64,000 nucleotides of DNA, from positions 10,193-74,192 of the forward strand of contig DASWMP010000294.1 of assembly GCA_036399695.1 (NCBI GenBank). The letters are read 5' to 3'. Below are positions 56,296-61,831 of this stretch, one piece after another. Within the stretch, counting starts at the first letter, position 1; each line of letters begins with the position of its first letter. This DNA is from Thermoanaerobaculia bacterium. Lineage in GTDB: Bacteria; Acidobacteriota; Thermoanaerobaculia; Gp7-AA8. The notes beneath the pieces are model-generated. The model was not told where the DNA came from and made no database searches. It saw only the letters and a program-made list of their open reading frames with translations. The position numbers were made by a program, and so were the translations under genes.

Positions 56296-57297
56296 GTGAT
56301 GACAATGAACGTGCAGCAGGCGATCACGGAATTCCTCCAGCACGGCCAGACCGTGCGAAATCTGTCTGACCGGACGCTTCGCGCGTATCAGTCGGACCTC
56401 GCGCAGTTCCAGAACCATCTGGATGGCGCGACGATGGCCGACATCACGGCCGACCACCTCGAGGGTTATCTCGACAAACTCGGCACCGGCCCCTACCGTG
56501 ACACCTCCATCCGCCGCAAGGTCGCTGCGCTGAAGGTCTTCTTCCGCTTCCTCGAAGAGCAGGGTGTGGTTGCGGAATCGCCTGCTCGCAAGCTCAAGAT
56601 CAAGCGTCCGGTCGAGAACCGCGTTCCGACCGTGCTCTCGACCCGCGAAGTGCGCGCACTCCTGGCCGCTCCGAAGGATCAGGTTTCCGAGCTCTCGGTC
56701 GTCCGCGACCAGTCGCCCGGCGGACGCAACCGCTACTTCTGCGCGGTGCGCGACAACGTCATCCTTGAGCTGCTCTTCTCCACCGGTATCCGTATCGGTG
56801 AGCTCGTCGCCCTCGACATCACCGACGTCGACATTAGCCGGCGGCAGGTCCAGATCACCGGACGCGCCACCCGCGGCCGCGCCGTAACGGTCTCGTCCGA
56901 GGTCGTGATCGACTCCGTGCAGCACTACATGGAGCTGCGCTCAGAGCGTCCTCTCGACACGCCGGCCCTCTTCGTCGGCCGCTCCGGAACGCGCCTCACC
57001 ATCTACTCGATCGAGAACATCTTCAAGAAGCACGTCCGGCTCGCCGAGATCAAACGCCACATCACCCCGCACTCCCTCCGCCACACGATGGCGGCGATGC
57101 TCGTCTCCTCCGGCGCCGACATCCGTGAAGTGCAGGAAATCCTCGGCCATGCCTCGATCCTCTCGACGCAGGTCTACACCAAACTGCCGATCTCGAAGGG
57201 CCGCCGCAGCCATACGGCCCACATGATGCCCACCCGCGTCATGCCCGAGGCTGCCGCCGTCGGCGGCAGCACCGCCAGGCTACCGATCAAGAAATAA
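56296..57297 (+). CDS. xerC: Tyrosine recombinase XerC/XerD family
   Basis: N-terminal SAM-like core-binding domain; catalytic RHRH-Y residues (HSLRHTMAAMLVSSGADIREVQEILGHASILSTQVYT). Confidence 0.85.
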   Translation: MMTMNVQQAITEFLQHGQTVRNLSDRTLRAYQSDLAQFQNHLDGATMADITADHLEGYLDKLGTGPYRDTSIRRKVAALKVFFRFLEEQGVVAESPARKLKIKRPVENRVPTVLSTREVRALLAAPKDQVSELSVVRDQSPGGRNRYFCAVRDNVILELLFSTGIRIGELVALDITDVDISRRQVQITGRATRGRAVTVSSEVVIDSVQHYMELRSERPLDTPALFVGRSGTRLTIYSIENIFKKHVRLAEIKRHITPHSLRHTMAAMLVSSGADIREVQEILGHASILSTQVYTKLPISKGRRSHTAHMMPTRVMPEAAAVGGSTARLPIKK

Positions 57298-57324
57298 AGA
57301 CGAATCTCACCGCAAGGTGGAAAA

Positions 57325-57356
57325 GGGCAAGCGGCAACGCTTGCCCTTTTTCTTTT
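57325..57356 (+). terminator. Rho-independent terminator after xerC
   Basis: GGGCAAGCG-GCAA-CGCTTGCCC followed by TTTTTCTTTT. Confidence 0.65.
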
Positions 57357-57434
57357 GGGTGCATGGATGGCCAGGAGGCGTGCGCGACGCTCCGAGACTC
57401 GCTCCGCCTCAGCGCGAAACCACGCAGCCCGCCC

Positions 57435-57854
57435 TCACCGCACTTTCACACTCGTCACGCGCTCGATTGCTCCAAGCACCTTCAGAAAGCGGGCGTAGTC
57501 CGTCGGCGAGACTTCGCTGTTGATCGCCCCTTCCAGCTCCGCGAGCAGCGCCCCGATCTTCTTCGCCGTCGCCGCTCCCTGCCGCGTCAGCCCGACCAGC
57601 AACGAGCGTTTGTCCGACGGATTCACCTTCCGCTCGATCAGCCCACGCTCCTCCAGCCGGTCCAGAATGCTCGTCATCGTCGAATGCTTCACCCCGAATA
57701 CCCGCACCAGCTCCGACACGGGACACGGGCCGTAGGGGAGGAGGTAACTGACGAGATGCCCCTCGTTCGCCGGCAGATCCGGCAGCCGTTCCTCGATCCA
57801 GATCGCGATCTGCCGCGAGGCCTTGTGCAATTGCGAGAGGTATTTCAGAGCCAT
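57435..57854 (-). CDS. MarR family transcriptional regulator
   Basis: Winged HTH (VSELVRVFGVKHSTMTSILDRLEERGLIERKVNPSDKRS); divergent from a DinB-family gene. Confidence 0.8.
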   Translation of the reverse strand: MALKYLSQLHKASRQIAIWIEERLPDLPANEGHLVSYLLPYGPCPVSELVRVFGVKHSTMTSILDRLEERGLIERKVNPSDKRSLLVGLTRQGAATAKKIGALLAELEGAINSEVSPTDYARFLKVLGAIERVTSVKVR

Positions 57855-57945
57855 CGTGCGTTAGTACGAAATCGTAACAACCGGAATTGCTACGATGTCG
57901 TAATATTACTCCACAACGCATTCACACCAGAAACCGGAGGAACCA

Positions 57946-59561: not shown

Positions 59562-60293
59562 GTGAGCCGACGCATTCTCTTGAGTTGCCTGTGCTTGATA
59601 TTGCTCTTCGTATGTGCCGCCCAGTCTCTCCGTGCGGAGGACGCGCCGGGGGGTGTTTGCCGCAAGGCGGCATGGGAGTGGACCCTGGACGAGCGGCTCG
59701 CGGCCAGGTTCGATCCGCACCAGATGCGTCATCGTATTACTGCTGCCCATGAGACCGGAGCACAGGGGACGATTCGTGCCGAGTCCTCTACACCGGCGAC
59801 GGCCGCGTCATCCGCTGAGCAACTCCCGACGGTCATTGACGGCAATCGCAATCCCGAGTTGTTTCTTCCGTGGGAGCTCTTCGACGACCTGCTGCGAGAG
59901 GCGTACGTCGGGCCGTCTGAAGCGCGTGACGTCATTCGCGCCACGTTTCTGGAGCGGGCTACGCGTTTGAGTCTGCCTTCCGATTTCTGGGACAAGCTCG
60001 CTGTTGCCGCGGCATCCCGTCTGGAACTGATCGCTCGCGAGCGGGAACTCCTTGCGACCCGTTCAGCGGCCGATCCCGGCTCGCGTCGTCGCTTAGATGC
60101 GGAGCTGGATCAGATCGAGGGACTCCTCTGCGGTGCGCGGATCGAATCGTTGCGAAAAGCTCGAGTGGCTTTTGGCGAAGAGACGTTCACCCGCTTTTTG
60201 TACGTCGCGGTGGCGCCGAACCTCAAATATCAGATGGAACCGGGGACGGCGGGAGCAAAGGAGCTTCGGGCAGGCGAGGAGGGCTGCAAGTGA
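59562..60293 (+). CDS. Secreted hypothetical protein (243 aa, predicted helical), first gene of a two-gene islet
   Basis: Signal peptide MSRRILLSCLCLILLFVCAAQSLRA; GTG start with RBS GGAGAAGG; lies in a locally lower-GC region. Confidence 0.55.
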   Translation: MSRRILLSCLCLILLFVCAAQSLRAEDAPGGVCRKAAWEWTLDERLAARFDPHQMRHRITAAHETGAQGTIRAESSTPATAASSAEQLPTVIDGNRNPELFLPWELFDDLLREAYVGPSEARDVIRATFLERATRLSLPSDFWDKLAVAAASRLELIARERELLATRSAADPGSRRRLDAELDQIEGLLCGARIESLRKARVAFGEETFTRFLYVAVAPNLKYQMEPGTAGAKELRAGEEGCK

Positions 60294-61321
60294 GTACTGC
60301 ATTCGGTCGTATCCTTCTGCCGCTGTTCACGTTTCTTGTCGCCGTTTCGAGCAACGCGCAAATACCGCAGCCGGAAGTCGCTGGCTACTGGTCAGGTTCG
60401 AGCCGCGCGGAGTTGAGGCGGGCTTTGGCCGGTAACCTCGTGTCGTACGGATATGCAGCCTATCTGACGACTTCCGGGAGCCTCCATCGAGAGGCATATC
60501 TGGACGTGGACCATCTGATCCATCCCGACGGCGCCCAATCGAATGCGTTGGCGTCGGAGTCGAAGCACCTCCTCCAGCCGCCGGAGTATTCGGGAAACGT
60601 GACGTTCGATCCGTATTACGCATGCTTCCGTGGACGCGTGGAAGGTCTTGCGTACACCTCGGGAGCCCGGTCATCGAGTGCCTGGGGCAGCAGCATGCTT
60701 TGCGTGACGGCCCCTACGCCGAAACCGATCTGCCCGGGCGATCCATCCTGCCCACCAGCCGGAACGACATGTACGGCCGAGACACCACCTGAAGAATGCC
60801 AGGTATCGCCCATCGTCATCAATCTGGGTGGCGGGAGTTATCGACTGTCCGATCCGTCTGACCCGGTGCAGTTCGATATCGACGTGGATGGTGACTCAGA
60901 GCGGATGACGTGGACGGCACGGAATGCGGCCATGGGGTTCCTGGCCTTCGACCGGAACGGCAACGGGCGGGTCGATGACGGCGCGGAGCTCTTCGGAAAT
61001 CACACGCCGCTGGGTGGCGGTCCCGCGGCAAACGGCTTCGAAGCGCTGCGGCAGTACGATGACAACGCGGACGGTCAGCTCGATCGCGAAGATGCCGCGT
61101 GGACCCACCTGCTTCTCTGGGTGGACGAGAACCACAACGGCAGATCCGAAAGCATCGAGCTTCTGCGGCTCGCCGGCACTGACATCACGGCACTCGAGCT
61201 CGACTATCGCCGCTCGGGCAGGAAAGACCCGGCAGGCAATGAGTACCGATACAGAGCCAGGCTGCAGCGGGCGCAGAGGACCGATTCCTACTACGACATC
61301 TTCTTCCGTCTCGTCGAGTAG
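60290..61321 (+). CDS. Secreted protein with a Cys/Pro/Thr-rich linker and C-terminal EF-hand/dockerin-like Ca-binding loops
   Basis: Signal peptide; CPGDPSCPPAGTTCTAETPPEEC; loops DRNGNGRVDDGAE, DDNADGQLDREDAA and DENHNGRSESIE; GTGA overlap with the upstream gene. Confidence 0.6.
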   Translation: MSTAFGRILLPLFTFLVAVSSNAQIPQPEVAGYWSGSSRAELRRALAGNLVSYGYAAYLTTSGSLHREAYLDVDHLIHPDGAQSNALASESKHLLQPPEYSGNVTFDPYYACFRGRVEGLAYTSGARSSSAWGSSMLCVTAPTPKPICPGDPSCPPAGTTCTAETPPEECQVSPIVINLGGGSYRLSDPSDPVQFDIDVDGDSERMTWTARNAAMGFLAFDRNGNGRVDDGAELFGNHTPLGGGPAANGFEALRQYDDNADGQLDREDAAWTHLLLWVDENHNGRSESIELLRLAGTDITALELDYRRSGRKDPAGNEYRYRARLQRAQRTDSYYDIFFRLVE

Positions 61322-61329
61322 CTGCCGGC

Positions 61330-61800
61330 GGGCGCTCTCGTATACCTCGTGCTCGATGTCGCGTCCGCGAGCGGTCTTGGTGAGGACCAGCCCGGCCGCG
61401 AATGGCGCCGATGATGAGCGCCGAGCCGACGAGGTCCGCCAGGTACGCAGGCCGAAGGTGAGCGTGATGCGGACGTGGCGGTGAGCGCCGCGCCGAGAAA
61501 CACGGACACGGTGGTCGGATAGTCGAGCCAGACGCCGACACCATAGCCGGCGGCGAAGGGGATGACTCCGTGGCGGCGACGGCGGCGGACGCGCCCCGAC
61601 GGAGAGCAGCGGGGTGATGTCGGTCTCCAGACCGATGAGGAAGAGCAGCAGAATGACGCCGAGCTCCGACAGGACGTGCAGGACCGGGTCGTGTGAGTCG
61701 ATGAGGTGCAGCCCGGAGACGCCGATTGACGATGCCACCGATCATTTCGCCGAGCACGGCCGGCTGACCGATCGTTCAGCGAGCTCCCCGAAAAGATTTG
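61330..61800 (-). pseudogene. Decayed cation/proton antiporter (CPA/Kef-like) gene fragment
   Basis: The minus-strand translation GLHLIDSHDPVLHVLSELGVILLLFLIGLETD resembles the N-terminus of CPA1/2 antiporters; downstream frames are broken with no intact ORF. Confidence 0.45.
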
Positions 61801-61831
61801 CGGCGCCGAAGATGACGAGGAGCGCGCCCGC

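Follow-up and report, generated by a model that had tools for sequence, protein, structure and literature searches.

The stretch of DNA analysed here ('the window') comprises 64 kb of a Thermoanaerobaculia (Acidobacteriota) genome, from a soil acidobacterium, and carries at 59.0-61.3 kb, downstream of a gene for an XerC-like tyrosine recombinase, a cassette consisting of a non-coding leader and two overlapping genes, P5 and P6. An earlier note, made from the sequence alone, had described an accessory islet at this place, and all of its listed elements were recovered in position from open reading frame (ORF) listings and from Pfam and NCBIfam searches. The two genes overlap by 4 nt (GTGA) and a Shine-Dalgarno-like run lies upstream of each, in agreement with the translationally coupled pair of signal-peptide proteins expected there. 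Both proteins have signal-like starts by inspection, with a basic n-region and a hydrophobic core followed by SLRA/E in P5 and SNA/Q in P6. The cassette has the following features (AF2, AlphaFold2; pLDDT, predicted local distance difference test; SPM, self-processing module; all on the plus strand).

59028-59561, +, non-coding cassette leader, holding the GC minimum of the window
59562-60293, +, P5, exported all-helical protein of 243 amino acids (aa) (family of 21 homologues; AF2 model, pLDDT 86.5)
60290-61321, +, P6, 343 aa (GTG start overlapping the P5 stop, GTGA)
60290-60358, +, P6 signal peptide, residues 1-23 (sequence inspection; low-pLDDT N-terminus with a short helix)
60392-60694, +, P6 N-terminal beta-sandwich, residues ~35-135, putative released 'cargo' (AF2, seven strands, pLDDT about 90)
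60695-60805, +, Cys/Pro/Thr-rich linker, residues 136-172 (pLDDT 63-72; variable in sequence, with an entropy H of 3.1-3.9 bits per column)
60806-60811, +, predicted processing junction Ser173-Pro174 (aligned with FrpC Asp414-Pro415)
60809-61318, +, SPM, residues 174-343, extending to the C-terminus (phmmer, profile, Foldseek, PF26745)
60950-60988, +, Ca2+ loop 1, EF-hand-like, D221-E233 (FrpC D462-E474; loops as defined in PMC7078468)
61058-61093, +, Ca2+ loop 2, EF-hand-like, D257-D268 (FrpC loop starting at D499; PMC7078468)
61124-61159, +, Ca2+ loop 3, EF-hand-like, D279-E290, containing H282 (FrpC D521-E532; PMC7078468)

Domain identity and fold of P6

The C-terminal part of P6 was identified as an SPM, a module whose fold was described as novel in 2020. 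In a phmmer search against the Protein Data Bank (PDB), residues 195-319 matched the SPM of FrpC from Neisseria meningitidis (6SJW/6SJX) with an E-value of 2.2e-16, and a profile of 65 family members lifted this match to an E-value of 4.3e-40, the next PDB sequence matches of P6 being calmodulin chains (E-values 0.2-3). The AF2 model of P6 had a pLDDT of 87.5 overall and above 90 over residues 174-343. Comparison by Foldseek placed the SPM on 6SJW and 6SJX with E-values of 2e-12 and 3e-11, respectively, and target-normalised template modelling (TM) scores of 0.79-0.80, over 170-175 columns of 179-182. The query-normalised TM scores were 0.43-0.44 for both FrpC entries and at most 0.22 for all other matches listed, and the next Foldseek matches (E-value 1e-3) fell on the N-terminal domain rather than on the SPM. 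An identical protein in a public collection carries a precomputed match to PF26745, labelled 'SPM'. This model was absent from the Pfam set scanned here, which explains why the scan showed only sub-threshold EF-hand matches on P6 (EF-hand_1, _5, _6 and _7, E-values 0.34-4.5, far below the cut-offs); some P6 homologues bear precomputed EF-hand matches inside the SPM. No Pfam dockerin match was obtained at E-values up to 10 and none was present among the fold matches listed, and Pfam found no RTX-repeat families in P6. It is close to certain that P6 carries a genuine SPM-fold, Ca2+-binding module, and it can be named an SPM-domain protein.

The conservation of this module was followed in 231 related proteins from two protein searches, the second of which covered all of 1.84 billion cluster representatives (50% identity). 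The ligand positions of the three Ca2+ loops were conserved at 93-100% in this set. The loops had been likened in the earlier note to those of dockerins or EF-hand pairs; three conserved EF-hand-like loops are indeed present, whereas the domain that holds them is an FrpC-type SPM, and neither a dockerin nor an EF-hand pair. On the N-terminal side, the beta-sandwich gave only generic immunoglobulin (Ig)-like fold matches in Foldseek (E-value about 1e-3), and an N-terminal domain of this family was found in 95 of 205 SPM proteins. The linker is as rich in Cys, Pro and Thr as had been noticed before, with 5, 9 and 6 of these residues, respectively, counted over residues 136-173.

Conservation at the predicted processing junction

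The Pro that opens the module, P174 (FrpC P415), was invariant in 231/231 proteins, and the residue before it was Ser in 175, Thr in 25, Cys in 15, Glu in 9 and Asp in 7, with no others. Column entropy was 3.1-3.9 bits at positions -8 to -2 and then fell to 1.2 bits at position -1. Asp and Glu interchange at this position within one clade, and Ser, Thr and Cys interchange among neighbours (sister sequences read CIPLNC/P and CIPLNS/P), which is the pattern expected of a nucleophilic side chain. The residues listed as enclosing the scissile bond of FrpC, W451, L475, G477, G491 and D579 (PMC7078468), correspond to W208, L234, G236, G249 and D336 of P6, all of which were 100% conserved. FrpC D478, which belongs to a transient fifth Ca2+ site in the scissile-bond region, corresponds to a natural Asn in P6 (N237); among FrpC mutants, D579 proved essential, while D478N kept its activity. 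The FrpC mutant P415A did not cleave, although it folded and its structure could be solved (PMC7078468). This Pro is thus needed for cleavage and not for folding, so that its invariance in the P6 family points to retained chemistry. Based on these patterns, we lean slightly towards the Ser-Pro junction being processed in P6.

Other positions are specific to the class to which P6 belongs, namely H282 (99%; Gln524 in FrpC), D313 (100%; Leu555), N248 (94%; His490) and Y335 (87%; Gly). At position 320 (column 168, window 61247-61249), Arg was found in 186 of the 215 proteins with Ser, Thr or Cys at -1, Gly in 11 of the 16 proteins of the D/E clade, and Ala in FrpC, making this the sole column that separates the classes. 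Counted from the Pro, the C-terminus lay a median of 171 residues away in 113 relatives.

P5 and its pairing with SPM genes

P5 matched no family in Pfam, NCBIfam or PADLOC. Its best PDB sequence match was to an unrelated protein (E-value 0.66), no Foldseek match against the PDB had an E-value below 1, and of the 21 homologues found none had a family name. Homology and structure searches, which the earlier note had proposed for both secreted proteins, thus identified P6 (6SJW/6SJX), while for P5 they gave no PDB match by sequence or by fold. P5 marks a new family, modelled as a confident helical bundle, in which W40, R45, R49, R58, G94, P98, L100, E105, F209, L213 and Y214 are invariant, C190 and C242 are near-invariant, and the C-terminus has the form G-C-[RKQ]. 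No lipobox was seen in P5 by inspection, and an N-terminal Cys is missing from most homologues.

A hidden Markov model of the family showed that, in 11 of 13 independent loci, the SPM gene is immediately preceded by a P5-like gene (the window, L088, L001, L003, L004, L006, L028, L089, L092, L093 and L094). The 4-nt overlap of the two genes was confirmed from gene coordinates in 8 of these 11, and short gaps were present in L006 and L089. The two exceptions were L091, in which a 179-aa protein without family and a DsbA-like gene lie by the SPM gene, and L090 (1-4870), where two tandem gene pairs each combine a large CarboxypepD_reg protein (1012 and 838 aa, respectively) with an SPM protein encoded right behind it, and no P5-like gene is present; these CarboxypepD_reg proteins may represent another type of SPM partner. 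The N-terminal domain of the SPM protein need not be detectably of the P6 type for P5 to be present. A dependence of P5 on the type of N-terminal domain had fitted the first 8 loci and was rejected, since P0114 and P0011 have a P5 without a detected N-terminal domain. P5 and P6 are likely to constitute a functional two-gene unit.

Further genes were observed upstream of some of the pairs. In L006, the P5-SPM pair is preceded by a 754-aa protein with a faint CarboxypepD_reg match. In L001 (4246-4965) and L003 (3881-4312), a third gene without family lies just upstream of the P5-like gene, the two products sharing a PLWVS..AFD motif and a C-terminal block (31% identity). A third cassette gene of this kind was also sought in the window by tblastn with the L001/L003 gene, and no trace of it was found.

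Size of the family

A phmmer search of the 1.84 billion cluster representatives with the P6 module returned 22,264 matches with E-values of at most 1e-3, 14,071 of at most 1e-10 and 1,680 of at most 1e-30; these counts include giant proteins with several SPM-like stretches. P6, with its upstream partner gene, belongs to a very large undescribed family. The giant proteins (P0150, P0193, P0197, P0208, P0227, P0235, P0239 and P0266) measure 918-4526 aa and contain 2-4 SPM-like stretches each, and in one of them, P0150, canonical Asp-Pro and non-canonical junctions are mixed (QD/P, SP/P and TT/P).

Genomic setting of the cassette

The features on either side of the cassette are as follows (strand given as '.' for repeats).

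53718-55946, -, Slt-type lytic transglycosylase (ORF listing, Pfam/NCBIfam)
55790-56161, -, GNAT acetyltransferase (ORF listing, Pfam/NCBIfam)
56296-57297, +, Xer-type tyrosine recombinase, XerC-like (Pfam Phage_integrase, E-value 2.6e-34), the end of the Slt-GNAT-XerC block
57435-57854, -, MarR-family regulator (Pfam MarR, E-value 1e-14), divergent from the DinB gene
~57945-58421, +, DinB_2 superfamily protein (Pfam DinB_2, E-value 9e-13; start according to the Joint Genome Institute (JGI) gene call)
58420-58463,., dispersed GC-rich repeat of family D13 (copies at 23386 and 51887; inverted copy at 23490)
58495-58944, +, ATP-binding cassette (ABC)-transporter permease pseudogene, N-terminal part, frameshifted and truncated (intact homologue in relatives; no family match)
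58942-59027,., 86-nt palindromic dispersed repeat (43-nt arms, 86% complementary; related copies at 21206 and 53648)
61322-61830, -, decayed CPA2 cation/proton antiporter pseudogene, ~510 nt, frameshifted (Na_H_Exchanger, E-value 6e-7; TIGR00932, E-value 2.4e-9)
61832-62359, -, second DinB_2 gene (DinB2), the first intact gene of the right flank (Pfam, E-value 2e-17; GC content at third codon positions (GC3) 0.88)
right of DinB2, -, cytochrome c-like and SCO1-like ORFs (translations read by eye, no Pfam/NCBIfam support)

The setting was compared in 80 loci from a XerC protein scan, with one genome per species, all being Thermoanaerobaculia or Acidobacteriota metagenome-assembled genomes. The best NCBIfam matches of the recombinase were XerC and XerD, each under its cut-off. 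The gene was 73-82% identical and syntenic across 80/80 Thermoanaerobaculia loci, and the Slt-GNAT-XerC block was kept in every locus long enough. As a member of this conserved block, XerC is a core gene lying outside the insert, which disposes of the suggestion that it is the recombinase of the islet. The DNA after XerC differs among the 80 relatives, and the MarR and DinB genes follow XerC in just 3 of them (L037, L051 and L070); the 3' end of the DinB gene is also present in L088, just upstream of its cassette. In L070, the gene after DinB encodes an ABC ATPase and the next one a multi-pass membrane protein of up to 604 aa; the ATPase gene is gone from the window. The remnant at 58495 shares 50-75% identity with a portion of a membrane protein that is intact (up to 604 aa) in ~30 relatives, a permease homologue lying 1-5 kb downstream of XerC. 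The match falls in two frames, and the window keeps residues ~20-150 (the N-terminal ~130 residues). The remnant breaks off exactly at the 86-nt palindrome, the hairpin of which has a folding energy of -67 kcal/mol (z -11 relative to shuffles, in RNA/DNA folding).

On the right, only the N-terminal ~45 residues of the antiporter were recognised (Na_H_Exchanger profile positions 29-71 of 375), and more antiporter pieces were seen in other frames when the minus-strand sequence was read by eye. None of DinB2, the cytochrome c gene, SCO1 and the antiporter was found within 10 kb of XerC in the 80 relatives. The divergent MarR/DinB pair, the membrane-protein remnant and the antiporter pseudogene of the earlier note are therefore all borne out by the matches given above, as is its repeat cluster, in which two dispersed families each have other copies in the window.

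Composition also sets the cassette apart. Over 300-nt stretches, the GC minimum of the whole 64-kb window was at 59201-59650, with 0.483 relative to a mean of 0.656 (standard deviation 0.039), and there are only three dips below 0.54 in the entire window. GC3 was 0.68 in P5 and 0.72 in P6, compared with 0.82-0.94 in correctly framed core genes of the window, and it was again core-like just right of the insert (DinB2, 0.88; SCO1, 0.90). Two decayed genes bracket the insert, the ABC permease on the left and the CPA2 antiporter on the right.

The same cassette occupies this site only in L088, and a different one is present there in L028. In L088, a closer relative (P5 80% identical), the leader, P5 and P6 begin 327 nt past the DinB stop, without a permease remnant. 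In L028 (DASPHZ010000006.1, 11032-15969), a divergent P5-SPM pair (33% and 42% identity) lies directly after XerC. The synteny differences, the gene remnants, the GC3 contrast and the comparison with L088 and L028 identify the post-XerC region as a variable spot and the cassette as accessory DNA. An insert, acquired or rearranged, occupies 58.4-61.8 kb; it is an ordinary accessory patch, in which the cassette DNA arrived or moved and neighbouring genes were lost. The acquired or rearranged patch that had been suspected here is thus upheld by composition, by the remnants on both sides and by variable synteny, and the proposed check of 58430-61800 as an insertion came out in the same direction. 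The site downstream of XerC may be an insertion hot spot. A search for direct or inverted repeats bounding the cassette found none that were convincing, a 25-nt stretch past the P6 stop being just 76% like the 58427 repeat, and the 64-kb window contains no tRNA genes.

Several further observations concern this and related loci. When ORF translations of L028 were read by eye, the P5-SPM pair was seen to be followed by a 484-aa ORF on the opposite strand with an HExxH-type motif (LAHELTH), zinc-metallopeptidase-like, and also by a phage-type tyrosine integrase ORF. Loci L005, L094 and L002 (JGI sample 3300034139) have three distinct P5-SPM cassettes (P6, P0005 and P0011) from the same metagenome sample as the contig of the window; several paralogues of the cassette may occur in one organism. 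The JGI contig matching the window stops at window ~61927, within DinB2.

Palindromic elements of several families abound in the intergenic DNA of the genome. Long near-perfect inverted repeats (arms of 43-69 nt, 85-93% complementary) were found at window 14273-14427, 5450-5606, 31627-31737 and 23392-23532. A 9-nt unit (GGGACCTAT/CCCATAGGT and variants) forms short intergenic arrays in both orientations at window 768-862, 30188-30280, 41030-41093 and 63558-63621, and one array of this unit is present in L088 (~230-290), just upstream of its cassette leader. Tandem 21-nt repeats were also observed, with seven CTCGAGGAGTCCGCTCGGAAG-like copies at window 20873-21040 and a related periodic array at 27051-27197.

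The leader

The leader had been described as a non-coding stretch of ~500 bp of low GC content and as the possible site of a regulatory RNA. The deepest GC dip of the window (0.483) does lie here, but only the last ~260 nt are AT-rich, 59040-59300 having a GC content of about 0.60. An Rfam scan of 55-64 kb gave only noise (E-values of at least 0.011, far under the gathering scores), and the covariance-model scan proposed for 59040-59560 produced no match inside this interval. The 276 nt before P5 folded no better than shuffles (z -0.79). In an nhmmer search of 94 loci, the leader matched only its own copy and that of L088, with no likeness upstream of other cassettes, and in L088 only the blocks 59296-59395 and 59500-59561 are kept. 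A regulatory RNA in the leader was rejected as unsupported on these three grounds (Rfam noise, folding and conservation limited to L088). The AT-rich end of the leader is probably the promoter and 5' untranslated region, and a promoter scan of the leader found no sigma-70-like site. Relative to L088, the leader of the window has ~97 nt extra, including a perfect small hairpin at window 59483-59505 (CCTTCGTA-ttaatt-ACGAAGG).

Comparison with known systems

In FrpC and ApxIVA, the Asp414-Pro415 amide is twisted as the module folds upon addition of Ca2+, the side chain of the Asp attacks the carbonyl of the same residue, and a lysine captures the resulting anhydride; the SPM is internal to a large, type-I-secreted RTX protein (PMC7078468, PMC7846742, PMC3034196). 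P6 resembles the FrpC SPM in its fold (TM 0.8 across the entire module) and sequence (about 30% identity), in having three Ca2+ loops at the same places, the module-initial Pro and invariant enclosing residues, and in that the module is C-terminal to the part that would be released. It differs in having Ser173 (Thr, Cys, Glu or Asp in relatives) for the catalytic Asp414, in lacking the fourth, incomplete Ca2+ site, and in having invariants of its own (H282, D313 and N248). Unlike in FrpC and ApxIVA, the module forms the C-terminal end of a small Sec-type protein without RTX repeats, and the host is a soil acidobacterium rather than a proteobacterial pathogen.

The gene frpD lies immediately upstream of frpC and is co-transcribed with it, and the FrpD lipoprotein binds FrpC residues 1-414, the part released by the SPM, at 0.2 nM (PMC3034196, PMC5233953). 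The P5-P6 arrangement is similar in that the gene directly before that of the SPM protein encodes a small exported protein, a likeness of gene order only. P5 is all-helical, has no lipobox and no homology to FrpD, and its binding to P6 is putative.

A Ser, Thr or Cys at the nucleophile position is also found in the FIIND of NLRP1, Nup98, SEA and GAIN domains and inteins, and the Ser of NLRP1 is followed by Pro, autoprocessing leaving a Ser-Pro N-terminus (bioRxiv 10.1101/2021.01.13.426575). However, these domains have unrelated folds, are Ca2+-independent and cut before the nucleophile, and the invariant Pro of the P6 family suggests that the X-Pro bond may still be the target. With type I dockerins and EF-hand pairs, P6 shares 12-residue Ca2+ loops of the DxNxNG type; its fold is different, there is no family-level match, and the loops lie within a 170-residue beta-rich module.

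Proposed mechanism and alternatives

The reading preferred here, with a rough probability of 0.55, is that P6 is a Ca2+-triggered self-processing protein with P5 as its dedicated partner, and that both came with the cassette at 59.0-61.3 kb, acquired or moved downstream of the core gene xerC. It starts from the domain identity and fold, the conservation of the junction and of the residues walling it, the P5-P6 pairing, and the composition and synteny evidence of acquisition; cleavage with Ser in place of Asp, the choice of bond, any ligation and the part played by P5 are inferred. The insertion would have cost the genome an ABC-transporter locus on the left and a CPA2 antiporter gene on the right. 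Once P6 is exported, environmental Ca2+ would fill the three EF-hand-like loops, upon which the SPM would fold and strain Ser173-Pro174, and P6 would process itself at the junction, freeing the N-terminal domain. This domain may be released in the form of an activated acyl intermediate of the ester type and be passed to an amine or other nucleophile, comparable to the Asp-anhydride 'clip-and-link' reaction of FrpC and ApxIVA. P5 would serve as a dedicated binding partner, acceptor or chaperone, mirroring FrpD, which binds the released part of FrpC.

Two chemical routes can be envisaged. In one, an N-to-O or N-to-S acyl shift onto the Ser, Thr or Cys would cut the bond before this residue and form an ester, for which the NLRP1 FIIND offers a precedent; in the other, the strained Ser-Pro amide would be attacked by water or by an outside nucleophile, possibly from P5.

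A number of points weigh against self-processing of P6 with P5 as partner. The Asp at position -1, the chemistry residue of every characterised SPM, is Ser in P6, and a Ser side chain cannot form a cyclic anhydride. A Ser N-to-O acyl shift would cut Val172-Ser173, making the invariance of the Pro harder to explain. Ser, Thr, Asp and Glu at -1 could instead be Ca2+ ligands or strand caps, and it is just the 15 Cys cases that argue otherwise. The fourth, incomplete Ca2+ site of FrpC (D419, D421, D423 and G424) is not kept, P6 having N178, G180, G182 and S183 and the family a consensus of N/D-L-G-x-G. P5 has neither a conserved Lys nor similarity to FrpD, so that its proposed role comes purely from gene order. 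Literature searches returned only Asp-Pro RTX modules and their NeissLock derivatives, and nothing on PF26745, on Ser-Pro variants or their cleavage, or on acidobacterial members. In the alignment of P6 with FrpC, the central 136 FrpC residues come from the PDB matches, whereas the first 23 and last ~20 are presumed; these ends agree with published numbering (415-PLALD-419 and G578-L582; PMC7078468).

Alternatively, the P6 SPM could be a non-cleaving Ca2+ folding or binding switch, which might for instance stabilise the protein or attach it to a Ca-bearing surface, with P5 an unrelated co-exported protein. Such a switch is consistent with the absence of the catalytic Asp, with the three EF-hand-like loops being the best-conserved part of the domain, and with literature searches that returned Asp-Pro systems alone. 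It is nevertheless rather unlikely, because it leaves unexplained the invariance of a Pro that is dispensable for folding (P415A, PMC7078468), the restriction of position -1 to Ser, Thr, Cys, Asp and Glu in 231/231 proteins while -2 varies freely, and the invariance of all residues walling the FrpC scissile bond. P5 and P6 might also be a secreted toxin-immunity or bacteriocin-like pair, in which the SPM would just release a toxic N-terminal domain. The varied N-terminal domains of SPM proteins (beta-sandwich, peptidase M10 and Flg_new_2) fit such a pair, as does the location of some cassettes near a C39-peptidase ABC exporter, HigB/helix-turn-helix (HTH) modules or an IS110 fragment. The chance of this is small, given that both proteins have signal peptides, whereas immunity proteins to exported toxins are usually cytoplasmic or membrane-bound, that P5 is conserved across differing N-terminal domains, and that neither a PADLOC match nor a toxin-domain match was obtained.

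A smaller chance still is given to the region being an integrative mobile element with XerC as its own recombinase and the leader as a regulatory RNA. The adjacency of the cassette to a tyrosine recombinase, the other P5-SPM pair of L028 lying right after XerC and before a phage-type integrase ORF, and the GC minimum in the leader are in its favour; these are outweighed by the position of XerC in a conserved block (73-82% identity in 80 relatives), the missing flanking repeats and tRNA gene, and the results for the leader, in which Rfam and folding gave nothing and conservation ends at one close relative. Docking of P6 on a cohesin-like partner, as a dockerin or EF-hand-pair protein, is highly improbable: the three DxNxNG/DxDxDG loops and the weak EF-hand (0.3-4.5) and calmodulin (0.2-3) E-values that could suggest it are set against the lack of any dockerin match in Pfam even at an E-value of 10, a mixed beta-rich SPM fold over the whole 170-residue domain (TM 0.8), and an FrpC match (E-value 4e-40) more than 35 orders of magnitude better than that of any EF-hand protein. 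With dockerins excluded, the search for a cohesin partner that had been recommended is moot.

Implications

To our knowledge, experiments have shown the 'clip-and-link' activity of SPMs only in RTX proteins from a small number of proteobacterial genera (Neisseria, Actinobacillus, Alysiella and Kingella). Under the name NeissLock, SPM chemistry is under development as a means of targeting proteins covalently. What is new here is that the SPM fold forms the C-terminal module in small Sec-type proteins of soil Acidobacteriota, a very large family in which the Asp is systematically swapped for Ser, Thr or Cys, the surroundings of the scissile bond are invariant, and an upstream partner gene is conserved.

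More tentatively, and on balance doubtfully, the Ser/Thr/Cys-Pro SPMs might constitute an unrecognised Ca2+-triggered class, in which the nucleophile would be a hydroxyl or a thiol and the intermediate an ester or a thioester. The upstream domain would be released or covalently transferred, the P5 family supplying the obligatory partner or acceptor. As these proteins make up the bulk of the best-scoring matches, such a class would account for much of the SPM superfamily. It would be a widespread system for ligating envelope or matrix proteins in soil Acidobacteriota, and would bring a new chemistry to tools of the NeissLock type. Active modules would amount to a second chemistry by which Ca2+ triggers proteins to cleave or ligate themselves, and to a novel means of processing or attaching exported proteins in diderm bacteria; inactive ones would be a case of a self-processing fold reused as a calcium switch.

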